Origin: Spirochaetia bacterium | GTDB taxonomy: Bacteria; Spirochaetota; Spirochaetia; CADAEX01 | Length of the DNA stretch: 64,000 bases | NCBI GenBank assembly: GCA_963662795.1 | Contig: OY759746.1 | Span: 2,080,001-2,144,000, forward strand | Direction of reading: 5' to 3' | In this document: positions 9,874 through 62,698 of the stretch, one piece after another | How positions within the stretch are numbered: the stretch's first letter is position 1 | How the letters are laid out: every line of letters starts with the position of its first letter | Notes under the pieces: model-generated | Databases searched by the model: none | Told to the model about the DNA's origin: nothing | What the model saw: only the letters and a program-made list of their open reading frames with translations | Program-made: the position numbers and the translations under genes

Positions 9874-10027
9874 GTATAACAGCGAATGACCGGTTCCGGC
9901 TGTTTCTAAGGAAACAGCCTCCACCCAAATTGCCGAAATAATACATGTTAAGAATAATGGAATAGAGTATAAACTTTTGGAGTGAAAAACACCATCGGCA
10001 ACTTCGGTCATTCGCGGGACGTTATCC
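9874..10027 (+). repeat. Outer attC-like site 6, family C
   Basis: GTATAAC-AGCGAATGACCG...CGGTCATTCGCGGGAC-GTTATCC; unit ~9809-10080. Confidence 0.88.
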
Positions 10028-10116
10028 ACAATATCATCGCAAGAGAACACCGCCCGGACCTCCGGCCAACGGGCGAAGAAAATAGAATCTGCTGTTTAAT
10101 ATACTTTATACAGAAC

Positions 10117-10150
10117 ATATATAGTTTTCTAGTTATTTAATAGGTTAGGC
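10117..10150 (+). other. Cassette-internal attI-like landing site (carrier 1)
   Basis: ATATATAGTTTTCTAGTTATTTAATAG-GTTAGGC; conserved in 6 cassettes, sequence diverges exactly after GTT. Confidence 0.7.
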
Positions 10151-10189
10151 GGACGCCTACACTGAGGCGCTTTTTAGTAGGAGTATAAA

Positions 10190-10777
10190 ATGAAAAAAAT
10201 ATTATTTGTTCTGTTTTTTGGATTTTTTACAAGCTTAATATTTGCTGCTCCATTTGGTTTAAAAATGGGTATGACAATAGAAGAAATTGAAAAAGAATAT
10301 GAAGAAGAACCAACATTCATAGAAAATGATATTTATTTGACAAAACCTATAAAAAGTCATCCTCTTTTTAAGTTTTATGCTGTATATGTAAATGAAAAAA
10401 CTGGTTTGTATCAAATCAGGGCTATTTCTTCAACTATTACGACAAATAAATATGGAGCAGAACTTCAAAGTGCTTTTAATACTGTAAAAGATAGAATCGC
10501 AAAAACTTATGGTAAGCCTGAAATTGTAAACAAAGTAGACCCGAACATATCAGAGTTTAATAAAAAGGATGAATTTTGGTTTATGACTTTAAAAGAAGGT
10601 TCCAGAATTCTTTCTGCTGTTTGGGATGAAAAAATAATATTAATCGATGATTTAGATACAGTAGCATTAGATTGTGTAGCTGATAACGGATATTTAGACG
10701 GAACAGCACATTTAACTCTGTATTACTATTTTAAAAATACAGGTAGTGTTGAAGATGAACAAGATGCAGTTTTTTAA
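10190..10777 (+). CDS. Hypothetical exported protein
   Basis: Signal-peptide-like N-terminus MKKILFVLFFGFFTSLIFA; RBS AGGAG. Confidence 0.75.
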   Translation: MKKILFVLFFGFFTSLIFAAPFGLKMGMTIEEIEKEYEEEPTFIENDIYLTKPIKSHPLFKFYAVYVNEKTGLYQIRAISSTITTNKYGAELQSAFNTVKDRIAKTYGKPEIVNKVDPNISEFNKKDEFWFMTLKEGSRILSAVWDEKIILIDDLDTVALDCVADNGYLDGTAHLTLYYYFKNTGSVEDEQDAVF

Positions 10778-10831
10778 TAGTGTAATTGCAATTATTGAAT
10801 TATCTGTTTACTATAGTTTTGGAATTTTATA

Positions 10832-13804
10832 ATGAAGTTTAGTGTTTTTGCCATTATAGCAATATTTACTATTTTTACAATTTTTTACATAAAAAGGCAA
10901 AAAAAACTATCTAAAGAACTTGAAGTAAAAATACATGAATTCCAAGAGCAAATAAACATTTTCTTCACAGAATATTTTGAATTACGAAAGCAATTTGTTT
11001 CCGAATCAGAAAAAAATAACTTTGCTGAAAAATGGCAAAAATTATATTTGGAAATACAAAAGTATCACATTTCAAAGAAGTTGAGTGCATTTGCGGAAAT
11101 AGAGCAATTTAAGGAAACCTATAAAAATCTTCATAGATATATTTCTGAATCAAATGCAGAAATCAAGCGAAAAGAAGAAATAAAACTTCTTTCACTGCAA
11201 ATATCAGATTTTTTTGCTGAATTGTTTGAAATTATAAATCAATATGTTTCTCATTCTGTAGATATTCAATTTACACAAAAATGGAATGAACTTTCACAAA
11301 AAACTGAAAAATCTAATATTCATAAAGATGACGATGCATTTGCAGAAATTGATCGATTTAAAACTGTTTATAAATCTCTTCATGATTACTTTGCTACTGC
11401 AAATGAAAAATACATTCAAAATGAATCGATGAAATATAACGATTTGTTTTCAAGTATAGATGGAAAAACTTTGGACGAGCAACAGAGAACTGCCGTTATT
11501 ACAGATGAAGATAGAATTCTTGTGCTTGCAGGTGCGGGTAGCGGAAAAACGCTTACAATTTCTGCTAAAGTAAAATATTTATGCGAAGTAAAAAATATAA
11601 ATCCAAAAGACATTCTTCTTATTTCATTTACAAAAAAATCTGCACAGGAAATGACAGAACGAATTCAAAATAAGCTAGGAATTCAGGCCGAAGCGACTAC
11701 TTTTCATAAAATTGGTCTTAATATAATCAAAAATTCTGATGGGCAACGACCAGAAATATCGGATGAGAATGTACTGAATCAATTTGTTCATAACTTTTTT
11801 GAAAGCGATATTTTAAATCATCCAGACTTAATAAAAGCCTTAACTGAATATTTCACTTACTTCCTTGAAATCCCCAACAATATGGAAGATTATTCTTCTC
11901 TTGGCGAATTGTATGAAGAAGAAAAAACAACCGACCTAGAAACATTAAAATCAAAATACGATCGGGAAAAATATATTCGTGAAACAGGTGCAGAAAAAGC
12001 TAAAGCTTATACTACTTTAAACAATGAGAAAGTAAAAAGTCTTGAAGAAACAAAGATTGCAAACTTTCTTTTTATGCACGGCATAAATTACGAATATGAA
12101 AAAATCTACCCCTTTGACAGCGCTGACCCGTTAAGAAAAACCTACCGTCCTGATTTTTATCTTACAGATTATGATATTTATTTAGAGCATTTTGGAATAT
12201 CAAAAGATTTTACCGTTCCGTGGCTTTCTCCTGTAGAAGAAAAAAAATATTTAGACGGAATTCAATGGAAGCGAGCATTTCATCAAGAAAATGAAACTAA
12301 ACTGATTGAAACTTATTCCTATTACAGTTATGAGGGTATACTTCTAAAAAAACTTGAAGAACTATTACTTACAAGTGGTGTTGAATTTAAATCTCGTGAT
12401 TTTACGGATATTTTCAATACTGTCTATGCAAGCAAGAGCAACAAATACTTTTCTGAATTTATAAAATTGTGCTGCACTTTTATCACGCTTTTTAAGTCAA
12501 ATAATTATAAAAATGAAGAAATTGAAAATCTAAAGCAGAAATATATTTTTGAAGAAACAAATGAATTCCTTCGGGATCGAACAAAACTTTTTCTTGATAT
12601 AATAAAAATCATTTTAACGGAATATCAGAATTATCTTTCTTCAAACAATGCAATTGATTTTTCAGATATGATAAATAATGCGACTGATAAAGTGATTTCG
12701 GGTTGTGAAATTCCTTTCTATAAATATGTTATTGTAGATGAATATCAGGACATCTCAAAGTCTAGATTTAATTTCTTAAAAGCAATAGCAGAAAGAATTA
12801 ATGCAAAAATATTCTGTGTTGGCGATGATTGGCAATCCATTTATCGATTTGCAGGAAGCGATATTTCCTTGTTTACTGATTTTGAAAAATATTTCGGATA
12901 TACAAAGATTCTTAAAATAGAAAAAACTTACAGAAATTCTCAAAATATTATAGATGAAGCATCTCGTTTTATTTTGAAGAATCCGCTTCAACTCAAAAAA
13001 GATTTACGCTCTGACAAAAGTTTAGATTACCCGTTTGTGTTTTGGGGATTTGATGACGAGCCGAAACAGGCATTACAATATGCAATTAAAAAAATTGTTT
13101 CAGAATTTGGAATAAAATCTTCCATTTTACTTTTGGGAAGAACCAATTATGATATTGAAATTGCAAAAAAGTCTGGACTTTTCAGAAGTGTTTATAAAAA
13201 CAGGAAAGAGCAGTTGGAATATATTCCAATTCATGAATTACGAATTGATTTTCTTTCAATCCATAAGTCAAAAGGCTTGGAAGCAGATAATGTTATTCTT
13301 CTGAACTTCAAGAATGATAAGCTTGGATTTCCGAACCAGATTGCAGATGATAAGGTATTAAATCTTGTCCTTACAAATGCCGATGATTTTAAGTTTGCAG
13401 AAGAACGCCGCCTTTTTTATGTCGCAATAACCCGAACAAAAAACAGAACTTTCATTCTTGCAGATAACAAAAATCCTTCCCCATTTTTTAAAGAGTTTTC
13501 TGAATCAAACTCAGTTTGTTTTGTATCAATCAAGAAAAATACAAACGAAAATCAGACAAACTGTCCGTTCTGCAAAACAGGAAATCTTTTGAAAGTTGAA
13601 CACGAAGGAAAATATTTTGTAGGTTGTTCAAATTTTCCGAAATGTAAATATACTTTGCACGATGCAACAATTCTTTTGAATCCAAAAAAATGTCCTTCTT
13701 GTGGTGGATTTCTGATAAAACGAAAAGGTAAGAAAGGACATTGGTTCAGTGGTTGCACGAATTATCCGTATTGTGAATATACGGAACAAATAAAAAGAGA
13801 ATAA
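10832..13804 (+). CDS. UvrD/Rep (helicase IV-like) helicase with N-terminal TM segment, inserted PD-(D/E)xK-like domain and C-terminal topoisomerase-type C4 zinc ribbons
   Basis: AGAGSGKT, VDEYQD, VGDDWQSIYRF, HKSKGLE, EERRLFYVAITR; YRPDFYL...YLEHFG; CPFC...CSNFPKC and CPSC...CTNYPYC. Confidence 0.88.
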   Translation: MKFSVFAIIAIFTIFTIFYIKRQKKLSKELEVKIHEFQEQINIFFTEYFELRKQFVSESEKNNFAEKWQKLYLEIQKYHISKKLSAFAEIEQFKETYKNLHRYISESNAEIKRKEEIKLLSLQISDFFAELFEIINQYVSHSVDIQFTQKWNELSQKTEKSNIHKDDDAFAEIDRFKTVYKSLHDYFATANEKYIQNESMKYNDLFSSIDGKTLDEQQRTAVITDEDRILVLAGAGSGKTLTISAKVKYLCEVKNINPKDILLISFTKKSAQEMTERIQNKLGIQAEATTFHKIGLNIIKNSDGQRPEISDENVLNQFVHNFFESDILNHPDLIKALTEYFTYFLEIPNNMEDYSSLGELYEEEKTTDLETLKSKYDREKYIRETGAEKAKAYTTLNNEKVKSLEETKIANFLFMHGINYEYEKIYPFDSADPLRKTYRPDFYLTDYDIYLEHFGISKDFTVPWLSPVEEKKYLDGIQWKRAFHQENETKLIETYSYYSYEGILLKKLEELLLTSGVEFKSRDFTDIFNTVYASKSNKYFSEFIKLCCTFITLFKSNNYKNEEIENLKQKYIFEETNEFLRDRTKLFLDIIKIILTEYQNYLSSNNAIDFSDMINNATDKVISGCEIPFYKYVIVDEYQDISKSRFNFLKAIAERINAKIFCVGDDWQSIYRFAGSDISLFTDFEKYFGYTKILKIEKTYRNSQNIIDEASRFILKNPLQLKKDLRSDKSLDYPFVFWGFDDEPKQALQYAIKKIVSEFGIKSSILLLGRTNYDIEIAKKSGLFRSVYKNRKEQLEYIPIHELRIDFLSIHKSKGLEADNVILLNFKNDKLGFPNQIADDKVLNLVLTNADDFKFAEERRLFYVAITRTKNRTFILADNKNPSPFFKEFSESNSVCFVSIKKNTNENQTNCPFCKTGNLLKVEHEGKYFVGCSNFPKCKYTLHDATILLNPKKCPSCGGFLIKRKGKKGHWFSGCTNYPYCEYTEQIKRE

Positions 13805-13810
13805 GAAAAC

Positions 13811-13924
13811 GCTTAACAACTGCTTCAAGCTGATTCGGCTATGTCACGATTCTTGCTAGTCGTCGCTACTCATCTCGGTAAGAATTGCGCCATATACGCC
13901 TCGCAGGTTAAGCAAATATTATAA
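13811..13924 (+). repeat. Inner canonical attC (R' mutated to ATT)
   Basis: GCTTAAC-AACTGC-TTCAAGC...GGTTAA-GCAAAT-ATTATAA; R'' matches GTTAGGC at 10144 with one mismatch. Confidence 0.78.
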
Positions 13925-13997
13925 AACAAAAATAGAAACGGGGGAAGTCCGGCCTTGGCGTTGCCGTGCGGCCTGGACAAGAAGCGATGATACTGGT

Positions 13998-14166
13998 GGA
14001 TAACAGAGGATAATGCGCTTCGCTCCCTTTGGTCGCTTGGCCTGCGGCACACATCGTAGTGTTTGAACTACAACATTTATTAACAACGAGTTTTGAAAAA
14101 TATTATATAGCTTTGGAATATTCATTCTTGGACTACGATGCGTCGCTTATCCTCAGGACGTTATCC
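13998..14166 (+). repeat. Outer attC-like site 7, family B
   Basis: GGATAAC...GTTATCC; unit ~13947-14219. Confidence 0.88.
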
Positions 14167-14280
14167 ACAATATCATCGCAAGATGACACCGCCCGGACCT
14201 CCGGCCAACGGGCGAAGAGTAGAAAAAGACATAATGGTTAACCAATTAAACCGATACATTCAAAGAAAGCAGAGGAATAT

Positions 14281-14628
14281 ATGAAAAAAGAAATTGTTAA
14301 AACACAAAAAGGAGAAATAACAGTTTACAGCGATATTGAAGTACCAATATCAGATGCATCAGATTTTCTTGATCTGCTTGCAAATACTAGTACTAAAACA
14401 ATATCACTGGATAAAGAATATTTAGATAATAGATTTTATGAATTAAGCTCTGGTCTAGCAGGAGAAATACTTCAGAAAGTATCAAATTATAGAAGAAGCG
14501 TGATAATTATAGGAGATTTTATCAATATCAATAAAAAGAGTTTAAAAGACTTTATATATGAAAGCAATAAAACAGGGCAGGTTGTATTTGCCAAAGACTT
14601 GGAAGAAGGAATCATTTTGCTGAAGTAA
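14281..14628 (+). CDS. DUF4180-like protein
   Basis: FYELSSGLAGEILQKVSNY...SLKDFIYESN signature. Confidence 0.82.
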   Translation: MKKEIVKTQKGEITVYSDIEVPISDASDFLDLLANTSTKTISLDKEYLDNRFYELSSGLAGEILQKVSNYRRSVIIIGDFININKKSLKDFIYESNKTGQVVFAKDLEEGIILLK

Positions 14629-15060
14629 TTGGAAAAAAGAGGAAAGATTTTGAAGAAAGATTTAATAGCCGCATGTGGAATTAATTGCTCATTATGTACA
14701 GGCTATCAAAGAGAAAAGAATAAATGCGAAGGTTGCAGGAGTGTTGGCAATAAACCAAAGAATTGCTTGAATTGCATAGTAGTAAATTGTAACAAGAGAG
14801 AAGGGAAGGAAGATTTTTGCTTTTCATGCGATACTTATCCATGCCAGAAAATTAAAAAGCTTGCAAAGCGTTATAGTATGCGGTATGGAGTAGATATTTA
14901 TAAAAATCTTGAAAGAATTAAAGCCAAAGGAATAAAGGTATTTGTTGAAGAAGAAAATGAAAAATGGAAATGTATAAAGTGCAAAGCTTTATTATGTATG
15001 CATAGCAAAAATTGTTTAAAATGTGGTGAAGTAAATCCATATTATATTGGAACTTTATAA
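14629..15060 (+). CDS. DUF3795-like Cys-rich protein
   Basis: IAACGINCSLC...CEGCR...FCFSCDTYPC. Confidence 0.8.
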   Translation: MEKRGKILKKDLIAACGINCSLCTGYQREKNKCEGCRSVGNKPKNCLNCIVVNCNKREGKEDFCFSCDTYPCQKIKKLAKRYSMRYGVDIYKNLERIKAKGIKVFVEEENEKWKCIKCKALLCMHSKNCLKCGEVNPYYIGTL

Positions 15061-15084
15061 TAGGTCTTTAAAAAGGATAAAGTA

Positions 15085-15495
15085 ATGATTTACCATATAG
15101 TACCGGAAAAAGAGTATTTGAAATTAGCTGCAAAAGAGAAATATATCCCAAATAATTTCAATGATTTCGGATTTGTACATTGTGCTTTTAAAGTTTCGGT
15201 TTTATCAGTTGCAGATGACTATTATTCAAAAGTAAAGGATAAGCTTATTCTTTTGAAAATAAACCCTGAGAAATTAAAGTCAGATGTAAAATATGAGGAA
15301 GCAACTCCGGAAGAAGGTTTAGGTAAAGAGCATTTAAATACTTCAAATGTTTTTCCACACGTATATGGGCCAGTAGATAATGATGCAGTTGAAGGAGTAG
15401 GCGAATTGGGGAAGAAAGAGGGAAAATATAGCTGGCCAGTTAAATTCATTCCTTTTGCAGAATATTTGGAAACAAATAAGAAGATAAAAGATTAG
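15085..15495 (+). CDS. DUF952-like protein
   Basis: MIYHI...GFVHC...FPHVYGP. Confidence 0.82.
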   Translation: MIYHIVPEKEYLKLAAKEKYIPNNFNDFGFVHCAFKVSVLSVADDYYSKVKDKLILLKINPEKLKSDVKYEEATPEEGLGKEHLNTSNVFPHVYGPVDNDAVEGVGELGKKEGKYSWPVKFIPFAEYLETNKKIKD

Positions 15496-17275: not shown

Positions 17276-17449
17276 GGATAACAGCGGTTGAAGCACTACG
17301 CTCGGATTACCTCGCTTGGCCTTCGGCAAACATCGTAGGATTTGAACTACAACTTTTAGAAACATTAAGTTTTTGAAAGACAATAAATAAAAGCATTGAG
17401 TATTCTATTCTTGGTCTACGATGCTTCGCTTAACCGCGGGACGTTATCC
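17276..17449 (+). repeat. Outer attC-like site 9, family D
   Basis: GGATAAC-AGCGGTTGAAGC...GCTTAACCGCGGGAC-GTTATCC; unit ~17224-17501. Confidence 0.88.
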
Positions 17450-17537
17450 ACAATATCATCGCAAGAGACCATCGCCCGGACCTCCGGCCAACGGGCGAAG
17501 AAAATGTGATCATTTGTAAATATATTTATACATAGAA

Positions 17538-17571
17538 ATATATAGTTTTCTAGTTATTTAATATGTTATAT
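17538..17571 (+). other. Cassette-internal attI-like landing site (carrier 2)
   Basis: ATATATAGTTTTCTAGTTATTTAATAT-GTTATAT. Confidence 0.72.
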
Positions 17572-17658
17572 TTAACTCAATTTGAAAAGGAGAGGAAATC
17601 ATAATTATCATATCTAATTGATTTGGGTGTGTTATAATATATCTATTAATAAAAGGAG

Positions 17659-18735
17659 ATGTTTATGAGTGATAATAAGAAATTCCCAAAAGAATTAGAG
17701 ATTCCAAAACCCCCAGAGCGATATAATAAAAATATAAAAGTGAAAATTAGTAAAGATGATGTTGCAAATGTAAATTTATTTATGATGGCATGTGATTGTG
17801 ATGAATATAAAAGTTCGAATAGAAGTGAATATGAAAAATCAGATATTAGAAGAATGTGTCGTCATATCGCAAAATTATATAAGAAAAAAATTAGAACTGA
17901 TAAAATAGATTCAATTAAAACAATGATGATAGAATCTGGTGAAGGGATTAAACCCTCTATAATTTATTTAGAATCAGAAGAATTGGGATATAGTATATGT
18001 ATCGCATTCCAAATAGGATTACCTTGGATAGATGTTTATGCAAAGAATATAAATGGAATTTATAAAAAGCATGTATATAATTATTCAAACAAAGAATGGC
18101 AAGGTAAAATTTCTTATAATAAAGAACTAATAGATGCTTTAGAGTCTTTTATTTTAGAGAATATTCAAGATAATTCAAATGCTAAAGCAAATGAAAAAAA
18201 GAATGGAGAAGAAAGAAATTACCATCAATATGTAGAAATACCAGAACTTAGTGAAGAATATAATAAAGATATCATAGTAAAAGAAGATAATAAGAAATAT
18301 AAATTGAACTTGTTTAAAATGGAATGCTCTTGCAAGGAATTTGATAAGAAAAAACATTATAGGTTAGGTGATTCAAGGAGAATGTGTTTTCATTTAAGAC
18401 GAGAATTTTGGAATACAACAGAGTTTAAGAAATTAAACAAACTCGAGCAAACTCTTATAAAGAATAATTATGGTAATAAAGATAATCTATTTATTTTTGA
18501 ATTAAAAAATGATTTAAGTTTTGCCATTTCATATGATGATGATAGAGAAGAATATTCAAGTTGGTATAATGTAATAGCCAGAAAGAATAATGGGCAATAT
18601 ATCTGTTATGCTTATAATCCTTATAGTAAACGATGGGCAAAAGACAAAAATCCAGAATTATACAAAGAAGAAATTGAGAATTTAGTAAATAGTATTGATA
18701 TTTTCGCTCAGAAAGATATAGACGAAGAATATTAA
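17659..18735 (+). CDS. Protein with two tandem SWIM-like zinc-finger domains
   Basis: Internal duplication NLFMMACDC...RRMCRH and NLFKMECSC...RRMCFH (CxC...CxH). Confidence 0.7.
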   Translation: MFMSDNKKFPKELEIPKPPERYNKNIKVKISKDDVANVNLFMMACDCDEYKSSNRSEYEKSDIRRMCRHIAKLYKKKIRTDKIDSIKTMMIESGEGIKPSIIYLESEELGYSICIAFQIGLPWIDVYAKNINGIYKKHVYNYSNKEWQGKISYNKELIDALESFILENIQDNSNAKANEKKNGEERNYHQYVEIPELSEEYNKDIIVKEDNKKYKLNLFKMECSCKEFDKKKHYRLGDSRRMCFHLRREFWNTTEFKKLNKLEQTLIKNNYGNKDNLFIFELKNDLSFAISYDDDREEYSSWYNVIARKNNGQYICYAYNPYSKRWAKDKNPELYKEEIENLVNSIDIFAQKDIDEEY

Positions 18736-18741
18736 GAGTAA

Positions 18742-18880
18742 ATATAACAAGAGATTTGGAGTAGTCAAAATTTATTGACACGATTCTGGCTAAAGACGTT
18801 CGGGCAATGGCCCTCACTCCAGAATCGCGCCAATTCCGCGAAGACGCGGACCAATTTTGCTACTCAAATCGTCGTTATAA
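18742..18880 (+). repeat. Inner canonical attC
   Basis: ATATAAC-AAGAGATTTGGAGTAG...CTACTCAAATCGTC-GTTATAA; R'' complementary to GTTATAT at 17565. Confidence 0.85.
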
Positions 18881-18949
18881 AAATAGAAACGGGGGAAGTC
18901 CGGCCTTGGCGTTGCCGTGCGGCCTTGGACAAGAAGCGATGATACTGGT

Positions 18950-19141
18950 GGATAACAGCGATTATTTCGCTGCGCTCCCTTTTGGTCGCTTGGGCTCCTG
19001 CCAGTTGAGCTGGCAGAGCGCCATATTTTGTTTTTATAAAACCAGAACAACATGTGTTCTATGCTTTTTATGTTTGAAAAATCAAATAAATGTATTTTAG
19101 AGTTTAACCACAAAACATCGAATAATCGCGAGACGTTATCG
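18950..19141 (+). repeat. Outer attC-like site 10, family A
   Basis: GGATAAC...GTTATCG; unit ~18898-19194. Confidence 0.9.
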
Positions 19142-25034: not shown

Positions 25035-25129
25035 TCGAACAACTTGTACAGGTAGAGTAATTGTCTGACAATTAAAGAAGTCCGGCCTTGGCTCCGCCGT
25101 ACGGCCTGGACAAGAAGCGGGAACACTGC

Positions 25130-29884: not shown

Positions 29885-30038
29885 TTATAACAGCGAATGG
29901 CCGGTTCCGGCTGTTTCTAAGGAAGCAGCCTCCACCCAAATTGCCGAAATAATAAATGTTAAGAATAATGGAATAGAGTATAAACTTTTGAAGTAAAAGA
30001 CACCATCGGCAACTTCGGTCATTAGCGGGACGTTATCC
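29885..30038 (+). repeat. Outer attC-like site 17, family C
   Basis: TTATAAC...GTTATCC; unit ~29833-30090. Confidence 0.88.
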
Positions 30039-30127
30039 ACAATATCATCGCAAGAGGAAATCGCCCGGACCTCCGGCCAACGGGCGAAGAAAATAGAATC
30101 TGCTGTATATTATACTTTAGACATAAC

Positions 30128-30161
30128 ATATATAGTTTACTAGTTATTTAATATATTAGGT
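30128..30161 (+). other. Cassette-internal attI-like landing site (carrier 3; core mutated to ATT)
   Basis: ATATATAGTTTACTAGTTATTTAATAT-ATTAGGT. Confidence 0.65.
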
Positions 30162-30183
30162 TCACTTAAAATAAATAAAGCTG

Positions 30184-31179
30184 GTGGTTATGAAAGCGAG
30201 ATATCAACAGGTATTAGATAAAAGTAAAGCGGCATTATTATCCGCAATTGAGCTTTATAATAAGCCACAGTATCTATATCGTGAAGAATCTTTTGCAATA
30301 TTATGTATAAATGCATATGAATTACTTTTTAAAGCAAAATGGCTTCATCTTCATAATAATAAATTAAACAGCCTATATACTTATGAATATAGAATTACAA
30401 AGAGTGGAAAAAAGTCAAAGAAAAAAACAATAAAAACAACAAGAAGCAATAATCCATTAACCCGCGAAATTAGTTATCTAGCAAATAAACTAATCGAACA
30501 GAAATTTTTAAATGGTATATTATGGGCTAATGTTCAATTACTTTTAGAAATTAGAGATTGTTCAATTCATTATTACAATAAAAATAATGCTTTATTACTA
30601 AAATTACATCAGGTTGCTTTAGCTTCAGTTAAAAATTTTGGAATTTTATTAAGAAACTGGTTTCCTGATGAATTGTCTGATTTTTCTACATCAATATTGC
30701 CAATTGCAATTATGGATAATGTACAGGAGAGTGATATTATTAGTTTAGAAAAAGATGAAGTACAAATAATACAGTTTATCCAAGCATATGAAGAAACCTT
30801 CAATGATGAAGAATCAGAATTTTCAATTTCACTTTCATTATCGTTAAACCTAAAAAAAGCAAAACCTGGTGAAGCCGTGATAGTAAGAATTGGAAATACA
30901 TCAGATATTAAATTACCAACAGTTAGGCTTTCAGATGAGCAAATTAGAGAGAGATATCCAATAACATATAATGAATTGAGTCGGAAATTAAGGTTAAGAT
31001 ATAGTGATTTTAAAATGGACTCTAAGTATCATGAATTGAGAAAGGCAATAACCAATAATAAAAAGTATTGTTATATTAGAGAGCTAGATCCAGGAAATGA
31101 AAAAACTCAAAAAAAACAATTCTATAGTAATGCAATAATTGAATATTTTGACCAAAATTATGAAAAAAAAGGAATCTAA
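30184..31179 (+). CDS. DUF3644-like (HEPN-related) protein
   Basis: KSKAALLSAIELYNKP...REESFAIL..NAYELLFKA; EIRDCSIH. Confidence 0.75.
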   Translation: MVMKARYQQVLDKSKAALLSAIELYNKPQYLYREESFAILCINAYELLFKAKWLHLHNNKLNSLYTYEYRITKSGKKSKKKTIKTTRSNNPLTREISYLANKLIEQKFLNGILWANVQLLLEIRDCSIHYYNKNNALLLKLHQVALASVKNFGILLRNWFPDELSDFSTSILPIAIMDNVQESDIISLEKDEVQIIQFIQAYEETFNDEESEFSISLSLSLNLKKAKPGEAVIVRIGNTSDIKLPTVRLSDEQIRERYPITYNELSRKLRLRYSDFKMDSKYHELRKAITNNKKYCYIRELDPGNEKTQKKQFYSNAIIEYFDQNYEKKGI

Positions 31180-31229
31180 TAACCTTTCACTGCGTTTGGG
31201 CGCAATTACAGGTTAAGCGAATGTTAAAA
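31174..31229 (+). repeat. Degenerate/shortened inner attC
   Basis: ATCTAAT...CAGGTTAAGCGAAT-GTTAAAA; right arm resembles the 13811 site. Confidence 0.6.
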
Positions 31230-31304
31230 AAAATAAAAATAGAAACGGGGGAAGTCCGGCCTTGGCGTTGCCGTGCGGCCTGGACAAGAAGCGATGATAC
31301 TAGT

Positions 31305-31476
31305 GGATAACAGAGGATACTGCGCTACGCTCGGAGTACCTCGCTTGGCCTGCGGCACACATCGTAGATTTTGAACTAAAACATCTATAAACAACAAATT
31401 TTTGAAGAAAAATACTGCAACCTTGAAATATTAACTCTTAGGCTACGATGCGTCGCTTATCCTCAGGACGTTATCC
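31305..31476 (+). repeat. Outer attC-like site 18, family B
   Basis: GGATAAC...GTTATCC; unit ~31254-31528. Confidence 0.88.
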
Positions 31477-31565
31477 ACAATATCATCGCAAGAGAACGCC
31501 GCCCGGACCTCCGGCCAACGGGCGAAGAAAATAGAATTTGCTGTATAATATACTTTATACATATC

Positions 31566-31599
31566 ATATATGGTTTTCTAGTTATTTAATATGTTATGT
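31566..31599 (+). other. Cassette-internal attI-like landing site (carrier 4)
   Basis: ATATATGGTTTTCTAGTTATTTAATAT-GTTATGT. Confidence 0.72.
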
Positions 31600-31626
31600 T
31601 TCAAAAAAGTTGGAGGTTAATAATTA

Positions 31627-33801
31627 ATGAGTACTTTAATTATTGATTTATCTCAATTTCCAGAAAGATTCAAAGAAAATAGTAGAAAAATTACAATCAC
31701 CAATAATGTTAATTTTATCTTTGGTAAAAATGGGACAGGAAAGACTACTATTTCAAATGTGATTTCAGATAATTTCTCAAGCAAATATGATATACATGTT
31801 TTTAATGGATTTGATGGAGTCGTTGGCGAGAATTATAGATTAGATGCAGTTTCATTAGGAACGATAAATGCAACAATTCAAAATGAAATTAATACAATTA
31901 CTGAAGAAATAAAAGTGATTTCAAGTAATATTGAAAAACCAATAGATAAAAAAGAAAACCTATTTACGAAATATGAGAAATCAAGAAATGTTTGTGATAA
32001 GCAAAAAAAAGAGCTTGAAGATTTCTATACCAATTCCGCGAGAGAAATTAAAAATAAGAAATGTGAAAACATTAATATAGCTGTCACTTCGTATAATAAA
32101 GACAAACTTAAGAATGAAATTAATTTAGCAAAAGGACTCACCTCTAGTGAAGAAACAGAATATAGAGCTACGATAAAGGCCGAAGAAAAAAAAGAACCAG
32201 AAAATGTTAAATTCCCTGTAATTAATTTAAATGAAATACTTGAGAATACAAATAGTATTCTCAGAAAATATGTGTCGAGCCAGCAAATAATTGAAGAGAT
32301 AGATAATAATATTGATAAACAAAACTTTGCAAAAGAAGGGATGAGAATCCATAGCCGAGATTCTGCAGAAAAATGTGCATTTTGTGGAAATATTATTGAT
32401 GAGAATAGATGGAAACTTCTTGGTAATTATTTTAATGATGAAGTAAAGAAATATGAAAAAGAGATAGATGATTATATCAATCTAATGAATCAGAAGTTAT
32501 TAAAAATCACTGATCTTAAAGAAACAAATCCAGATCATTTTTATGTAAGTTTTCAAAATCAAATTAATAAAATAAATACCCAGATTCGAGATTTAAAAGA
32601 AAAATACAAAGACTTCATTACTTTAATGGTTCAAAATCTAAAAGAAAAAAAGAAAAATCTTTTTAGTACTGATAAAGAAATATCATATATTATTCCAAGT
32701 GATTTTTCTGAAATACAAACTAATTATGATGATATTCTAAGAGAAAATAACACTTTTTCAAAACAACTCAGTGAAGAACAAGAAAAAGCAAGAACTGCCT
32801 TACGTTTATTCGAAATAAAAAAACTATCAGACGAATTTAAATATACTGAAAAACTAATTAAATATAATCATTCTTTAGAGTTAGAAGATAAAGCTAGAGA
32901 TAATTTGAATTCTGAAAAAGAATTATTAGAATCAAAAAAGAATAAGGTCAATGAGTTGTTATTGCAAACTAAGGATGAGCGTATAATCGCTGAACGTATT
33001 AATAAAAAATTACGAAATATGGGAGTTTCATCATTTTCTCTTGAATTAGTCGTAGATGATGACAAAGATCAAAAGGGGCAATATAAAATCAAAGGCTATA
33101 ATGGCAATATTCGTTCAATAATTGAACTTAGTAAAGGCGAGAAAAATATAATAGCTTTTTTATACTTTATTCTTTCTCTTGAAGAACTCAAGACAGAGGA
33201 AAAACCAAAAATAATAGTATTAGATGATCCAATGACTAGCAATGATGATACGATGCAATATCTTATGATTGGAGAAGCCCAAAGACTTTATCATGGAATA
33301 TCTGGGGAGAACTTCTTTATTAATCTAACTCATAATTGTCATTTTTATCTCAATATAAGGCCCAATACAACTCGTAAATATAAAATTAATGGTGATGATG
33401 TTAGTTATTATGAAAAATATGGCAATTATCATCTTTATTCTGATGGAAAACAAACGACATTTTATAAAATCATGAAAGGGAAAAAGGATTTCAAGACAAA
33501 CTATGAAATGTTATGGATTGAATTACAATTCCTTTATGATTCTAATGAACCAAATCTTATGCTTAATGTTTGTAGGAAAATATGTGAAACATATATGTCA
33601 TTTACAAAGCTAGGTATAGAACATTTTTATGGTGAGAATACAAATGCTAAAAAATTATTTGATGTAAATCAACATTCTATTGATGATATGGATGCAGAAC
33701 AGAATGGAAGAACAAAGGAAGAAATACGTGATATTTTAAAAGTATTATTTGAACAAAATAATGCACTTCAGCATTTTGAGAATTATTTTCATAGTGTTTA
33801 A
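31627..33801 (+). CDS. RloC-like AAA_13 ABC ATPase (zinc hook, putative C-terminal HEPN/anticodon nuclease)
   Basis: GKNGTGKT, central CAFC hook, LSKGEK, VLDDPMTS, LTHN, NVCRKICE...NQHS. Confidence 0.78.
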   Translation: MSTLIIDLSQFPERFKENSRKITITNNVNFIFGKNGTGKTTISNVISDNFSSKYDIHVFNGFDGVVGENYRLDAVSLGTINATIQNEINTITEEIKVISSNIEKPIDKKENLFTKYEKSRNVCDKQKKELEDFYTNSAREIKNKKCENINIAVTSYNKDKLKNEINLAKGLTSSEETEYRATIKAEEKKEPENVKFPVINLNEILENTNSILRKYVSSQQIIEEIDNNIDKQNFAKEGMRIHSRDSAEKCAFCGNIIDENRWKLLGNYFNDEVKKYEKEIDDYINLMNQKLLKITDLKETNPDHFYVSFQNQINKINTQIRDLKEKYKDFITLMVQNLKEKKKNLFSTDKEISYIIPSDFSEIQTNYDDILRENNTFSKQLSEEQEKARTALRLFEIKKLSDEFKYTEKLIKYNHSLELEDKARDNLNSEKELLESKKNKVNELLLQTKDERIIAERINKKLRNMGVSSFSLELVVDDDKDQKGQYKIKGYNGNIRSIIELSKGEKNIIAFLYFILSLEELKTEEKPKIIVLDDPMTSNDDTMQYLMIGEAQRLYHGISGENFFINLTHNCHFYLNIRPNTTRKYKINGDDVSYYEKYGNYHLYSDGKQTTFYKIMKGKKDFKTNYEMLWIELQFLYDSNEPNLMLNVCRKICETYMSFTKLGIEHFYGENTNAKKLFDVNQHSIDDMDAEQNGRTKEEIRDILKVLFEQNNALQHFENYFHSV

Positions 33802-33824
33802 ATACGATTATAAAACAAGATGAA

Positions 33825-33900
33825 ACATAACAATCATTTGGAGTTGACGCCTTCTCGGCGCTGCGCTTCTACGATGGCGCAACTCAAATGGGCGTTATAA
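33825..33900 (+). repeat. Inner canonical attC (76 bp)
   Basis: ACATAAC-AATCAT-TTGGAGTTG...CAACTCAA-ATGGGC-GTTATAA; TGAAACATAAC is the exact reverse complement of GTTATGTTTCA at 31593. Confidence 0.88.
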
Positions 33901-33970
33901 AAAATAGAAACGGGAGAAGTCCGGCCTTGGCGTTGCCGTGCGGCCTTGGACAAGAAGCGATGATACTGGT

Positions 33971-34142
33971 GGATAACAGAGGATACTGCGCTACGCTCGG
34001 AGTACCTCGCTTGGCCTACGGCATATTTTGCTATCATCAAAAATGAATAGTAAAAGTTAAACTTTTTTCAAAATTAACAAAGTAGACATAAATGTTTTAG
34101 AGTATGAACCGCAAAACATCGCGTATCCTCAGGACGTTATCC
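33971..34142 (+). repeat. Outer attC-like site 19, family B
   Basis: GGATAAC...GTTATCC; unit ~33919-34195. Confidence 0.88.
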
Positions 34143-34256
34143 ACAATATCATCGCAAGATGACACCGCCCGGACCTCCGGCCAACGGGCGAAGAGTAGAA
34201 AAAGACATAATGGTTAACCAATTAAACCGATACATTCAAAGAAAGCAGAGGAATAT

Positions 34257-43047: not shown

Positions 43048-43239
43048 AAATAACAGCGATTATTTCGCTGCGCTCCCGATGGTCGCTTGGGCTCCTGCCA
43101 GTTGAGCTGGCAGATCGCCATATTTTGTTTTCATAAAACCGGAACAACATGTGCTTTGTGCTCTTCAAGTTTGTAAAAACCAAATAAAAGTATTTTAGAG
43201 TTTAGTCACAAAACATCGAATAATCACGAGACGTTATAA
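43048..43239 (+). repeat. Outer attC-like site 25, family A
   Basis: AAATAAC...GTTATAA; unit ~42996-43291. Confidence 0.9.
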
Positions 43240-43316
43240 GCAATGTTCCCGCAAGAGAAAACCGCCCGGACCTCCGGCCGACGGGCGAGGAAAGCATAAT
43301 CTGCTTTATACATAAA

Positions 43317-43350
43317 ATCTATTGTTTTCTAGTTATTTAATATGTTATAC
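43317..43350 (+). other. Cassette-internal attI-like landing site (carrier 5), IS4 immediately downstream
   Basis: ATCTATTGTTTTCTAGTTATTTAATAT-GTTATAC. Confidence 0.7.
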
Positions 43351-44625
43351 CATAGGTGACTAAAACAATCATAACAGCTCCAGTTGAATATTAAAACTAC
43401 TTTTTCTAGTCTGTTCTGATGGCGGTTTATTGAGAACAGTCCAGATATCTTTTCTTGATGTCAGTATTACAGGAATCAATTTCATCAGTGAAAAATGAGT
43501 CCATTTTCTACATGAAAACATTTTAAGGAACTGAAGTAACAGAAAAGCAATTAGGGCAATCCAGATTTGTGTCATTACAGCATTTCTGGAAGTACCAAAG
43601 AATTTCTTGATCTTGAGGTTCTGTTTGATAGTTTTAAAAAATATTTCAATCTGCCATCTGTCTTTGTAAACAGCAGCAATTGTTGTTGGAGACCAAAGGA
43701 AATTATTGGTAAGAATTACAATATATTTACCGGTTTCAGGATCTCTGCTTCTGATTCGTCTTAATTTTAACGGGCATTTTTTACTGGTGTAAAATCCTTT
43801 CATTTCTATGATCTGATCAGATGTAATATTTTTAAAGGAGGAGGTATCTTTTCTCTGGACAATTTTATAATCAGCATTCTTTTTTAACCTGGTAACAAAA
43901 TAAATACCGGTATTACAATAATTTGCGAATAATTTAAAGTCAGTATAACCACGATCAAACGTGATGACATCGCCTTTGTTGAAAGCCATTTTTTTCAAGG
44001 AATTGACTTCATGTGTTTTTGCAGTTGTAACTGATACAAAAGCTGGAATATATCCACTATGGTCAAGTTTTACATTAAGTTTTATTCCGCCTTTATATTT
44101 TCTGAAATTTGCCCATGGAAAGAGATTTAAACACAAGTCAATAGTTGATGCATCAACACTGTAAAGAGGATTTTTAAATTTATGTTTATGCGCTCTCTTC
44201 ATGGATAATATCTTATCAAGAAGATCAGTGAAAACATTTTCATAAACTTCACAGCTTCTATTATTATTTGCGTAAGATAATGTAGAGCGTTTTACCTTTT
44301 TTACACCCATATGATAAAGGTGGTTACTGATTGATTCAAAAGAGTTTTCAATGCCTCTTAACCCGGTCTGTCCTGAAAGTTGTGCAAAGAGCATGGAGAC
44401 AAAATGCTGCCAACAGGTAAAACCTTTGGAAGCGAAGTCGCCATTATGCTTTTTTACAGATTTTTCAAATTCATGTCTCGGAATTATTTGTAGAATTTGT
44501 TTTAAAATGGTATTATTGTAACTCATTGCCTGATTTCCTTTTCCTGTAAAGAATTAGCCGTCCAAGCTTAATTCATTATAGTTGGGATTTCAGGCAATTA
44601 ATAGTCCTTGTTTTGGACACCTATG
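43351..44625 (-). mobile_element. IS4 family element copy 2 (one TIR mutated, no target duplication)
   Basis: CATAGGTGACTAAAACAA ... TTGTTTTGGACACCTATG; flanks ATGTTATAC / ATCTAATAT differ. Confidence 0.92.
43369..44526 (-). CDS. IS4 family transposase
   Basis: Two aa differences from 6686..7843. Confidence 0.95.
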   Translation of the reverse strand: MSYNNTILKQILQIIPRHEFEKSVKKHNGDFASKGFTCWQHFVSMLFAQLSGQTGLRGIENSFESISNHLYHMGVKKVKRSTLSYANNNRSCEVYENVFTDLLDKILSMKRAHKHKFKNPLYSVDASTIDLCLNLFPWANFRKYKGGIKLNVKLDHSGYIPAFVSVTTAKTHEVNSLKKMAFNKGDVITFDRGYTDFKLFANYCNTGIYFVTRLKKNADYKIVQRKDTSSFKNITSDQIIEMKGFYTSKKCPLKLRRIRSRDPETGKYIVILTNNFLWSPTTIAAVYKDRWQIEIFFKTIKQNLKIKKFFGTSRNAVMTQIWIALIAFLLLQFLKMFSCRKWTHFSLMKLIPVILTSRKDIWTVLNKPPSEQTRKSSFNIQLELL

Positions 44626-44632
44626 ATCTAAT

Positions 44633-45280
44633 ATGAGATATCAATTATACAACGAAATTAAAGTAGAAACATTGAATAAAGATAATAAATATTTTTATAA
44701 AGGAATATTGGAATTAAAATATATTTTATTTATAGATTACATGAATGAAATTAATAAATTATTATTAGATGATACTAATAATTTTGATGAAAAACCAAGA
44801 TATAAAGTAATAAGCATAAAAAAAACTATTAATATTTTGAAGAAAGATTCTTATAGGAAAATATTTATCATAGAAATTAATAAACAAAATATAGTAATTG
44901 ATAATTTTGGAACAATAAATAAAGATGAAGAAATCCAAGAAATAGTAAAAGAAAAATATATTGCAGAAAAAATGCGTATTTATGATAAAATATTAGAAAC
45001 ATGGAATCTATTAGAATCAAAATATAATTTAAAAATATATAAAGAGTTTAGAAATAAAGTCATTGCACATAATCAGCTTAAAACTGTGAATGGGGTAAAA
45101 GATGGATTTGAATATAACATAAAAGAGTTTGAAAATCTTGAGGAAATACATGAAATAACTAAAATATTAATAATAGATCTTAATTCTTTAATAAATGGAG
45201 AATTGAATGTTATTATAGCAGTAGAAAATGAGCAAAAGAAAATGGCTGAAGCAATATTTAAAACAATAAATAACGTATAA
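44633..45280 (+). CDS. Putative HEPN (AbiU2-like) protein, possibly 5'-truncated by the IS
   Basis: IYKEFRNKVIAHNQ motif; stop codon lies in the inner attC R'' box. Confidence 0.55.
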   Translation: MRYQLYNEIKVETLNKDNKYFYKGILELKYILFIDYMNEINKLLLDDTNNFDEKPRYKVISIKKTINILKKDSYRKIFIIEINKQNIVIDNFGTINKDEEIQEIVKEKYIAEKMRIYDKILETWNLLESKYNLKIYKEFRNKVIAHNQLKTVNGVKDGFEYNIKEFENLEEIHEITKILIIDLNSLINGELNVIIAVENEQKKMAEAIFKTINNV

Positions 45281-45380
45281 CAAACGCATGCAACTGACAA
45301 TTTTTTTCTCATAGTTTTTGAATACTCAAAAACTATGACAACTATTCGAGACAAAATTACAGCTGATGCGGTCGTTATAA
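45275..45380 (+). repeat. Inner canonical attC
   Basis: GTATAAC-AAACGC-ATGCAACTG...CAGCTGAT-GCGGTC-GTTATAA. Confidence 0.82.
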
Positions 45381-45450
45381 AATTAAAAAAAGAAAGAAGT
45401 CCAGCCTTGGCTCCGCCGTGCGGCTTGGACAAGAAGCGGCTGGTACTGGA

Positions 45451-45624
45451 GCATAACAGAGGATAATTCGCTGCGCTCGGATTACCTCGCTTGGCCTGCG
45501 GCATATTTTACTATCATATAAATGATAATAATTGATAATTATCCTTTTTATATTTTGTTAATCAAACACAAGAGATTTCTATAGTTCGAGCCGTAAAACA
45601 TCGCTTATCCTCAGGACGTTCTCC
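45451..45624 (+). repeat. Outer attC-like site 26, family B
   Basis: GCATAAC...GTTCTCC; unit ~45399-45676. Confidence 0.87.
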
Positions 45625-55910: not shown

Positions 55911-55971
55911 CAAAAGAAAAAGTCCAGCCTTGGCTCCGCCGTACGGCTTGGACAAGAAGCGGGAACACTGC

Positions 55972-60894: not shown

Positions 60895-61059
60895 AGCGGT
60901 TCAAGCGTTTCGCTCGGAGTACCTCGCTTGGCCTACGGCAAACATCGTAGGGTATTTACTACTCCTGTTGGGAACAACACTGTTCAAGAGAGAGAAAGTT
61001 TATCTTAATGTTAAATAATCTTTATCTACGATGCTTCGCTTAACCGCGGGACGTTATAT
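60888..61059 (+). repeat. Outer attC-like site 36, family D
   Basis: ACATAAC...GTTATAT; unit ~60806-61110. Confidence 0.88.
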
Positions 61060-61147
61060 GCAATACGACCCCAAGAGAAATCGCCCGGACCTCCGGCCCA
61101 CGGGCGAAGAAAAGATGATTTACTGTATAATACACTCTATATATAAA

Positions 61148-61181
61148 ATATATAGTTTTCTAGTTATTTAATATGTTATCT
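61148..61181 (+). other. Cassette-internal attI-like landing site (carrier 6)
   Basis: ATATATAGTTTTCTAGTTATTTAATAT-GTTATCT. Confidence 0.72.
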
Positions 61182-61233
61182 TCACAACATCATATGCAAG
61201 CCTTGTACATGAGAGCTTTATAGTGTACAATAT

Positions 61234-62370
61234 ATGTGCAAATATGTACATGACGGTGGTGAAATGAATAATAAACCCAATAATGGATTACCTTTACTCC
61301 CTCCAAAAGAAAAATTAGAAAATATTACAGTGTTACGAAAAGCAATAAAAGCTAATACAGAATTGGCAAAACTGAATGGGTATTGCTCTACAATCCCCAA
61401 TGAAAACATTTTGTTGAATGCAATAATACTAAATGAAGCAAAAACCAGCTCAGAAATAGAGAATATAATCACTACTCATGATGAAATTTACAAAGCATTA
61501 CTAAAAAAAGACGGAAAATATGATCCTGAAACGAAAGAAGTATTAAATTATAGAGAAGCAATATGGCAGGGTTATAATTTAATAACAGAGACTAATATTC
61601 TAACTACAAATACAATTGTTAGAATTCAAGAAACGCTGGAAAAAAATAAGGCTGGAATAAGAAAATTACCTGGAACGAAATTAATGAATGATCAAACCGG
61701 TGAAGTAATATATACACCTCCAGATGATGAGAAAATTATAAGAGATTTATTAAGAAATCTTGAAGAATACATCAATATTGATGATGAGATAGATCCGCTA
61801 ATAAAACTTGCAATAATTCATTATCAGTTTGAATCTATACATCCTTTTTATGATGGAAACGGCAGAACTGGAAGAATTATTAATGTTTTATACCTTGTAT
61901 TAAAGGGATTGTTGAAATCTCCAATACTTTATTTGAGTAGTTATATAATAAAAAACAAAGGAAATTATTATAATTATCTGCAGAAAGTAAGAAATGAAAA
62001 TGACTGGGAAAGCTGGGTAATGTTTATGTTGGAGGCTGTAGAAAAAACTTCATTAGAAACATTAAGTACTGTAAAAGCAATTAGAGATTTGATGGAAGAA
62101 ACAATTGAATATTGCAGAGAAAAAATGTCAAAATCAAGTTATTCAAAAGAATTAATTGAATTGCTTTTTGTTCAACCTTATACAAAAATTGATTTTCTGG
62201 TGAATAACAATATTGCTGAAAGAAGAACTGCAAGTAAATATTTATCGCAGCTGGAAGAACTTGGAGTGTTAGAATCATTTAAATCCTGGAAAGAAAAAAT
62301 ATATATAAATAAAAAATTATATAAACTATTAAGAGGATCAGAAGATAACAAAAAATTGGAGCAGATTTGA
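61234..62370 (+). CDS. Fic family protein (start may be 61264)
   Basis: EAKTSSEIEN, HYQFESIHPFYDGNGRTGR. Confidence 0.93.
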   Translation: MCKYVHDGGEMNNKPNNGLPLLPPKEKLENITVLRKAIKANTELAKLNGYCSTIPNENILLNAIILNEAKTSSEIENIITTHDEIYKALLKKDGKYDPETKEVLNYREAIWQGYNLITETNILTTNTIVRIQETLEKNKAGIRKLPGTKLMNDQTGEVIYTPPDDEKIIRDLLRNLEEYINIDDEIDPLIKLAIIHYQFESIHPFYDGNGRTGRIINVLYLVLKGLLKSPILYLSSYIIKNKGNYYNYLQKVRNENDWESWVMFMLEAVEKTSLETLSTVKAIRDLMEETIEYCREKMSKSSYSKELIELLFVQPYTKIDFLVNNNIAERRTASKYLSQLEELGVLESFKSWKEKIYINKKLYKLLRGSEDNKKLEQI

Positions 62371-62448
62371 TTTTTGTCATGTAAATTGCGAAAGCAATTT
62401 ACATGACAACCCTGCGGGACAATCGAGCAGCTCAATTTGGCGTTAGCT
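62343..62448 (+). repeat. Inner canonical attC
   Basis: AGATAAC-AAAAAA-TTGGAGC...GCTCAA-TTTGGC-GTTAGCT; GAAGATAAC is the reverse complement of GTTATCTTC at 61175. Confidence 0.85.
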
Positions 62449-62526
62449 ATACTGGAATATTTAGAAAAGAGGAAAAGTCCGGCCTTGGCGGTGCCGTGCG
62501 GCCTGGACAAGAAGGGGTCGTACTGT

Positions 62527-62698
62527 ATATAACAGAGGATAATTCGCTACGCTCGGAGTACCTCGCTTGGGCTTCGCCATATTTTGCTTTCAAACAAACA
62601 GAAGAATATTATTTTTATTCTTTTCAAGTTTTAAAAAAAAGACAAATGAGAATTATAGTTTTAGATGCAAAACATCTTTTACCCGCGGAACGTTCTCC
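62527..62698 (+). repeat. Outer attC-like site 37, chimeric family B left arm / family E right arm
   Basis: ATATAAC-AGAGGATAATTCG...CTTTTACCCGCGGAAC-GTTCTCC; unit ~62477-62748. Confidence 0.82.

Follow-up and report, generated by a model that had tools for sequence, protein, structure and literature searches.

The 64,000-nt stretch of DNA analysed here (the window, G000:C1:2080001-2144000) belongs to the genome of a Spirochaetia bacterium, G000, which is a single contig of 3.93 Mb with 39.7% GC, and it sits within an array of approximately 330 kb and about 190 cassettes bounded by co-oriented repeats. Six of the cassettes in the window, which we call carriers, enclose DNA organized as classical integron cassettes, joined to a conserved leader at a single position. 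Our preferred explanation, which we hold to be on balance the probable one, is that the end of the leader is a double-stranded, attI-like landing site within the carrier cassettes, at which complete classical cassettes have been inserted repeatedly. Nested, repeated and site-specific insertion is well supported by the sequence, and from it we infer the attI-type chemistry, the empty state of the site, the catalyst and the adapter function that are discussed below. According to this explanation, classical cassettes, either singly or as mini-arrays of two or more, would have been inserted at the G|TT of the leader by recombination of an attI-type site with attC, and would be followed by a right half specific to the carrier type and then by the outer site, leader and right half having presumably once been contiguous. 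The carrier would move as one unit, and the nested classical cassette would ride in a unit bounded by outer sites and would probably gain a promoter.

The array that hosts the carriers is defined by a tail motif, TCCGGCCNACGGGCGA, of which the genome holds 168 copies, 166 of them between 1,850,172 and 2,180,028 and all on the + strand. Boundaries were placed by pairing of R''/L'' with L'/R' in 173 cases and by eye, from the same R' context, in 18 more, and these 191 boundaries delimit 190 outer cassettes with a median length of 1,468 nt. Each outer boundary is a composite site of about 300 nt, consisting in order of a G+C-rich head hairpin (hairpin A), a first arm some 20 nt long, AAC, a core of 150–180 nt that folds back on itself, GTT, a further arm and a tail hairpin (hairpin B). 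The arm that follows the GTT does not pair with the other arm of its own site; its partner is the arm that precedes the AAC at the opposite end of the cassette. This pattern is expected from cassettes that circularize at G|TT. A scan of the window against Rfam found no family. The six carriers of the window, their cargo open reading frames (ORFs) and their internal sites are as follows.

Carrier 1 (arm type A), 10021..14159, + strand: leader end at 10143, junction G at 10144
Carrier 1, cargo: ORFs 10190-10777 (195-aa partner) and 10832-13804 (990-aa UvrD/GajB-like helicase with a topoisomerase Zn ribbon), named from PADLOC and domain matches
Carrier 1, 3' part: inner attC from 13811, with R' by homology the ATT at 13918; right half A at 13932-13944; outer head at 13947
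Carrier 2 (arm type A), 17443..19134, + strand: junction G at 17565; cargo ORF 17659-18735 (358 aa, no family match)
Carrier 2, 3' part: inner attC 18742-18880; right half A at 18883; outer head at 18898
Carrier 3 (arm type A), 30032..31469, + strand: junction ATT at 30155; cargo ORF 30184-31179 (DUF3644 / PDC-S19, E 7e-109)
Carrier 3, 3' part: short inner attC at about 31174-31229; right half A at 31239; outer head at 31254
Carrier 4 (arm type A), 31470..34135, + strand: junction G at 31593; cargo ORF 31627-33801 (724-aa AAA_13 / PDC-S06, E 3e-225)
Carrier 4, 3' part: inner attC 33825-33900, with an 11-nt complement between R'' and the cassette start; right half A at 33904; outer head at 33919
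Carrier 5 (5' and 3' arms of different types), 43233..45617, + strand: junction G at 43344
Carrier 5, insertion sequence (IS) copy inside the inner cassette, 8 nt past the junction: about 43351-44626, with a DDE transposase at 43369-44526 on the - strand
Carrier 5, cargo and 3' part: ORF 44633-45280 (HEPN AbiU2-like, weak match); inner attC 45275-45380; A-rich right half; outer head at 45399
Carrier 6 (arm type B), 61053..62691, + strand: junction G at 61175; cargo ORF 61234-62370 (SoFic-like Fic protein, E 2e-119)
Carrier 6, 3' part: inner attC 62343-62448, with a 9-nt complement; right half B at 62451-62474; outer head at 62477

The leader, about 60 nt long, follows hairpin B, and its 3' end reads ..TAGTTTTCTAGTTATTTAATAT|GTTA. 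Searching the window for the leader 25-mer with up to three mismatches returned six matches (10122, 17543, 30133, 31571, 43322 and 61153), compared with none in 100 shuffles, confirming the claim of a preliminary description of this DNA that six of its cassettes share a leader. The starts given there for these cassettes (10021, 17443, 30032, 31470, 43233 and 61053) proved to be exactly the G of the outer R' GTT in every case. Across the genome we accepted 27 leader copies, each located 49–67 nt after the tail hairpin; all are on the + strand and within the array (1.878-2.170 Mb), rather than scattered over the chromosome, and the 27 carriers make up about one in seven of the array's cassettes. 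One further match to the leader pattern, at 2008566, was rejected: its arms are ordinary and it lacks a GTT.

Mean pairwise identity among the 27 leaders is 0.44 at positions -60 to -41, 0.65 at -40 to -21, and 0.91 both at -20 to -1 and in the GTT, and past the junction it falls to 0.60 at +3 to +4 and to a background value of 0.33 at +5 to +24. The last 20 nt maintain this identity of 0.91 across carriers of at least five arm types, and the difference from the value of 0.44 found 40–60 nt upstream points to the site itself being under constraint. Of the 27 junction triplets, 23 are GTT, three ATT and one TTT. The preliminary description had the leader ending in GTT and similarity stopping exactly there; the drop from 0.91 to 0.33 bears this out, although the junction of the carrier at 30032 is ATT and the leader of the carrier at 10021 ends in TAATAG. 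Beyond the junction, the only sequences that recur among the 27 cargos are copies of two IS elements. Because unlike cargos adjoin the same phosphodiester in these 27 carriers, and in two metagenome contigs described below, the leader end appears to have been used many times, and the diversity of the cargos argues against an inert junction, which would have trapped a first cassette that is identical everywhere.

The junction lacks the fold of an attC. When two leader junctions were folded, they gave z-scores of -0.9 and -0.8 and no centroid structure, and the possibility that the leader is a small attC hairpin (AACATAT..ATATGTT) was rejected, the AAC being present in only about six of 25 copies and the region not folding. 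Three direct heptamers containing GTT are visible in the leader (GTTTTCT, GTTATTT and GTTAT..), spaced 9 and 11 nt apart. A TATAAT box occurs in 17 of the 27 leaders, and on the basis of this hexamer we infer a putative promoter function for the leader.

Downstream of the cargo, and 5–20 nt before the right half, lies the inner attC, a site of about 56–148 nt with AAC and GTT core sites. The starts of these sites in the preliminary description agree to within 1–3 nt with nhmmer matches at 13813, 18743, 33826, 45276 and 62345, and the short site at about 31174 was recognized by eye and by folding. Its view that each carrier has a second, shorter and unrelated attC stands as regards the positions and the lack of relationship to the outer sites, but the inner attCs are related to one another and to a known family of classical attCs. 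A profile built from 13 inner attCs detected 25 sites genome-wide at E<=0.01 (13 of its matches being its own training sequences), all of them in the array and 22 in carriers, while outside the array the best E values were only 0.13 and 0.19. Folds of the bottom strand at 33823-33902 and 62341-62450 are hairpins of the attC type, with the R boxes and L stems paired and with bulges (z-scores of -3.7 and -6.2), and the inner sites of the carriers at 10021 and 30032 fold more weakly (-0.7 and -1.3). RNAalifold, applied to a MAFFT alignment of the 13 inner attCs, gave no consensus structure because the bulges shift the register.

The start of the inserted DNA is related to its end in the manner of a classical cassette. 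An exact reverse complement of at least 8 nt to the bases that follow the junction was found in 17 of the 27 carriers, compared with 66 of 540 shifted controls, which start 7–140 nt further on in the same carriers, and a complement of at least 9 nt in 13 of 27, compared with 25 of 540. For the window, the claim that the inner R'' is complementary to the bases after the leader's GTT proved exact in the three pairs quoted for it (11, 10 and 9 nt), but the carrier at 10021 pairs at six of seven positions and that at 30032 has two mismatches in 10. Scanning all 190 cassettes for a complement of R'' within their own first 330 nt placed it at the leader junction in 14 carriers, the other six rows being A/T-rich, low-complexity 7- to 8-mers at arbitrary offsets. 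A scanner for AAC..GTT stems is noisy (at a threshold of 22 it gave 48 matches per 100 kb outside the array and 110 inside), and was used only together with this test of R'' against the start. Four carriers hold two profile-detected inner attCs, and in two of these the start of the second cassette complements the R'' of the second attC, over 9 and 8 nt. The inner units thus have an R''/R' attC hairpin, a start complementary to their own R'' and an attC family that occurs beside a bona fide IntI, all of which are properties of classical cassettes.

After the inner attC the carrier resumes with a right half, as had been proposed for four of the six carriers in the window. Right half A, ATAGAAACGGGGG, stands next to the head in four of the six, and all nine of its copies in the genome are in carriers, with none elsewhere on either strand; the same is true of the seven copies of right half B, ACTGGAATATTTAGAAAAGAGGAA. 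The type of right half correlates with the type of arm, and, as read from the arm sequences, the 5' arm and the 3' outer arm are of the same type in 25 of 27 carriers, which fits movement of the carrier as one unit.

Comparison with other genomes indicates where the inner cassettes come from. The closest intact homologues of the only classical-type intI of G000, a pseudogene, include those of three sister-genus genomes (55–59% identity), which head classical arrays that adjoin the intI gene and are oriented divergently from it. In the 60 kb beside intI, the inner-attC profile matched 43 sites in G010, 22 in G011 and 17 in G012, and the IntI of G012 scores 386.6 bits in a single stretch against the integron-integrase model TIGR02249 (cut-off 265). 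In blastn comparisons, inner attCs of G000 were up to 90% identical over about 103 nt to the classical attCs of the sister genus, and the Fic cargo of the carrier at 61053 has a homologue (54–58% aa identity, tblastx) inside the classical array of G012. These matches suggest that the inner units are ordinary cassettes from the classical integron pool of the family, and not from distant taxa; to call them foreign, as the preliminary description did, is an overstatement. In the sister genus, the classical arrays yielded no copy of the leader.

At up to two mismatches, the other 19 genomes of the family gave only one match, in G010, which we regard as a chance match since it has neither outer motifs nor an attC. 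At up to three mismatches there is one real homologue, in G012 (G012:C1:~3,306,030-3,306,165; L163:1395-1530), which differs at three of 25 positions and follows the tail hairpin of an outer-type cassette, with a GTT and an ORF after it; no inner-family attC was detected in the 1.5 kb downstream. In G011 there is an outer-type array that shares these arm and tail sequences and is located beside a 46%-identical orthologue of the recombinase that accompanies the array in G000. With no inner-type attC in the 40 kb of it that were covered, this array indicates that both systems exist separately elsewhere in the family.

Metagenome data extend these observations beyond the one assembly. Two contigs, L121 and L123, carry the leader with cargo that is absent from G000, and L123 also has right half A and an attC homologous to the site at 33825. 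In an independent sediment-metagenome run (X1), one region spanned by contigs takes in the leader junction (31508-32770; 10 differences) and another runs from the inner attC through the right half to the head (33423-33943; five differences). A third candidate, L122 (Ga0075163_10134163), matched the leader 22-mer by chance and was rejected; it is AT-rich, is otherwise unrelated and has CCCCAAAA/GGGGTTTT repeats at each of its ends. We also observed that L123 contains degenerate copies of the outer tail and head hairpins within its inner cargo (L123:125-160 and 2570-2605), near the start of the cargo and near its classical attC; in some relatives, then, classical attCs may have hairpins of this kind beside them as well.

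Two recombinase genes of G000 need to be considered as the source of the inserting activity. One encodes a 339-aa, Xer-like tyrosine recombinase (genome 1846782-1847801) and lies just upstream of the first outer site of the array, in the same orientation. Its best NCBIfam model is XerA_Arch, at 214.5 bits (cut-off 220), and against TIGR02249 it scores 200.1 bits in two stretches, below the cut-off of 265. An additional domain specific to IntI was reportedly described by Messier & Roy in 2001. Residues 234-259 of the array recombinase align opposite residues 172-239 of VchIntIA (IntI4; PDB 2a3v), and alignment to classical IntI leaves three gaps, totalling about 39 aa, in the region of the IntI insertion; on the strength of these alignments, the array recombinase is without most of the IntI-specific insertion. 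Judged by the family model and the additional domain together, it is therefore not an integron integrase. Its closest named relatives, at 79% and 54% identity, are in Spirochaetia metagenome-assembled genomes, and the gene of the 54% relative (L024) has five similar long sites downstream. The other gene is the intI pseudogene (genome 412,089-413,302), which is split between two frames by a frameshift, has two TGA codons and one TAG codon inside, and is located between nested IS elements and an rRNA operon. A whole-genome search with the inner-attC profile found no attC near it, and there is no array at that place. Of 401 genomes sampled from the class, 125 have an intact homologue of the pseudogene. 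The inserting enzyme could have been the classical IntI before its decay, or it could be the array recombinase.

The established entry points of integron cassettes are attI, attC and, in rare cases, secondary sites. The leader junction resembles a classical attI in having a conserved left flank up to G|TT, inserts that start with the complement of their own R'' and end with an attC, further cassettes stacked behind the first, no hairpin fold and, as at Pc, a TATAAT box upstream. The crossover at G|TT is indicated here by the drop in identity, at a site with no stable fold and with the cassettes to its right. The leader differs from a classical attI, however, in that it stands beside no integrase gene: its 27 copies all lie within cassettes that belong to another array, 30–320 kb from the array recombinase, and none of them adjoins any recombinase gene. 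It has no detectable similarity to the resident attI or to the attI regions of relatives. Insertion of a classical cassette at a secondary site, a GTT outside attI and attC, is also comparable, and may re-create a functional junction, but such events are sporadic and unique and use a loose GTT site, whereas a conserved sequence of 25–35 nt has here been used at the same phosphodiester at least 27 times, in the carriers, and again in the two metagenome contigs. We set the leader site apart from secondary-site insertion because the same site was reused and its left flank is conserved. A literature search, in which the supplementary tables of PMC4889954 and PMC8352920 lay outside the search, brought up no account of one integron cassette nested in another, nor of an attI-like site carried within one. 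For integrons of the Treponema type, ORF-less cassettes bearing promoters have been described (PMC6557892). An empty carrier would resemble these in being an ORF-less cassette with a promoter-like element in a spirochaete array, but those are ordinary cassettes with classical attC, and the abstract of that report describes no internal landing site or nesting (PMC6557892).

Several observations weigh against the interpretation of the leader as a reusable landing site. No empty carrier was found by regular-expression searches of the assembled genome, and a single metagenome scan with the exact leader 22-mer also returned none, the only two relevant contigs both being filled; the empty form that the preliminary description had suggested looking for, in this genome and its relatives, thus did not come to light in these searches. 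A joint from 31596 to 33900 does occur in the strain's own contigs (two each in X4 and X5), where it is marked 'between: not known', and it is probably explained most simply, as are tail-to-head joints, by contigs of other carriers that share both flanks. There is no intact classical IntI in G000. Alignment of the leader with the attI next to the array recombinase (a comparison that the preliminary description had also proposed), with either flank of the intI pseudogene and with the classical attI regions of the three sister-genus genomes gave no significant similarity. G011 possesses both systems, and yet no inner-type attC was found in 40 kb of its outer array. Four of the 27 junctions are ATT or TTT instead of GTT, the type B right half starts 5, 9 or 20 nt past the last inner GTTA and so is not at a fixed distance, and a simple consensus scan calls no promoter in the leader. 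Ten of the 27 carriers are without an exact complement of at least 8 nt and nine are without a profile-detectable attC, and some of the carriers without a clear signature have short or mutated sites, such as the ATT in place of GTT at 13918 and the site of about 56 nt at 31174. Finally, three cassettes that have no leader also hold an attC of the inner family, one of them with a degenerate R' and two of them copies of each other with a clean junction, ...AGTATAT|GTTAGAAG, which indicates that the leader is not the only entry route. The original concept of an attI-bearing platform, packaged as a cassette and importing canonical cassettes, is supported as to the repeated insertion signature at G/TT and the non-hairpin nature of the site, but not as to an empty site or similarity to attI.

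Of the other explanations considered, the least improbable, though still unlikely, is that the carriers are captured copies of the lineage's own classical platform, a Pc-attI segment without intI, so that the leader would be a true homologous attI of the dead IntI. The intI of G000 is indeed a pseudogene with no array left, and its cassette-side flank is cut by nested IS elements about where the sister genus has its attI. The junctions of sister-genus attI sites, ..TTGAATATGTAAT|GTTAT and ..AATATTATAT|GTTAT, are locally reminiscent of the leader's ..TTTAATAT|GTTAT, the resemblance being local only. In alignments of the leader with the three classical attI regions and the pseudogene flank, however, the observed score was reached by 43, 488, 444 and 183 of 500 shuffles, which is no better than shuffled sequence, and the leader homologue in G012 sits in an outer-type cassette of a genome whose intact classical integron has a different attI. 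We give slightly less weight to the idea that the carriers are snapshots of how all outer cassettes arise, with a classical cassette entering an empty shell and the inner attC and landing site then decaying. The leader-less cassettes that keep an inner-family attC, the carriers whose inner attCs are degenerate or undetectable, and the occurrence of TATAAT-containing sequence after hairpin B in ordinary cassettes as well are all in its favour. Yet neither an inner attC nor the leader has left any trace in about 160 non-carrier cassettes, 40 kb of the outer-type array of G011 contain no inner-type attC, and many non-carriers have instead another conserved element, a 25-nt hairpin located 34 nt before the head, which is not a decayed attC.

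A slightly more doubtful proposal is that a single, ancestral and accidental insertion of a classical cassette at a secondary site in an outer cassette was multiplied by duplication, after which exchange between attC sites varied the cargo, the left junction remaining inert. Secondary-site insertion at GTT-type sites is said to be established for IntI1, reportedly in work by Recchia & Hall in 1995 and Segal et al. in 1999, and the clean insertion into a different sequence in the two mutually copied leader-less cassettes shows a comparable arrangement. The diversity of the cargos, which share only IS copies where an inert junction would have kept an identical first cassette, speaks against this proposal, as do the 17 of 27 first cassettes that start with the complement of their own R'' and the conservation of the last 20 nt of the leader across arm types. 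Least probable by far is that the pattern reflects misassembly, to which large arrays rich in repeats are prone, or a repeat arising by chance; the X1 contigs span both the leader junction and the region from inner attC to head, the architecture recurs in two metagenome contigs, and the leader occurs 0 times in shuffles.

If the leader end is a conserved landing site that travels in mobile cassettes, themselves part of a second array of different construction, it would represent a new level of modularity and would link two recombination systems in one genome. It would also explain the persistence of classical cassettes after decay of their integrase, and could provide for promoter supply across a 330-kb array that lies beyond the reach of a single Pc. 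A broader hypothesis, which we advance only tentatively, is that of a two-tier economy, in which the array of a non-IntI recombinase keeps mobile shell cassettes, every one equipped with a promoter-like leader, a landing site of its own and an outer site, that capture classical cassettes and convert them into units of the outer array. Were this true, a sedentary array would re-label imported cassettes with its own sites and keep them after loss of the classical integrase, and a concrete, testable model would be available for one part of an old problem, the origin of host-specific cassettes. The reconstructed site, the inner attCs and the two candidate recombinases are defined at base resolution, making the landing-site interpretation directly testable.

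Many of the carrier cargos resemble anti-phage defence genes, and in the window they are largely candidate defence genes, four of the seven inner cargos matching PADLOC families (SoFic, PDC-S06, PDC-S19 and GajB-like). Sedentary chromosomal integrons have been outlined as stores of anti-phage defence cassettes (bioRxiv 10.1101/2024.07.02.601686), and the cargo set of the window fits the defence-gene storage reported there. The very large sedentary array of G000 and these PADLOC matches are points of likeness to the integrons of that outline (10.1101/2024.07.02.601686), but the recombinase here falls below the IntI cut-off and is without the IntI insertion, and the classical cassettes are nested and not directly arrayed.

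Other features of the array were noted in the course of this analysis. An ORF-less outer cassette of 624 nt is present in three copies (genome 1,891,172; 1,953,477; 2,144,386), each directly upstream of a carrier, and the third lies 386 nt past the end of the window; the outer site of its subfamily (..ACCATCGGCAACTTCGGTCATTCGCG..) precedes seven of 25 carriers. A 25-nt hairpin, GTACAGGTAGAGTAATTACCTGACA, occurs together with variants 34–35 nt before the head hairpin in 24 cassettes of the array, 23 of them non-carriers and mostly of one arm type; its copies in the window include 25046-25070 and 55888-55912, and eight more copies lie outside the array. A three-gene cassette is duplicated within the window at 99% identity, 20 kb apart (14143-14442 and 34119-34418, with ORFs at 14281-15495 and 34257-35471). 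Multi-copy IS elements interrupt window cassettes at 6686-7843 (+), 43369-44526 (-) and 4382-5550 (-), the types present being a 385-aa DDE_Tnp_1/DUF4372 transposase and an IS3-like ORF pair, the latter label resting on ORF sizes alone. At genome 450,479-451,600, approximately 1.4 Mb from the array, the head and mid motifs of the outer site are found together with the 25-nt hairpin, and this locus may be a small satellite cluster of outer-type cassettes.

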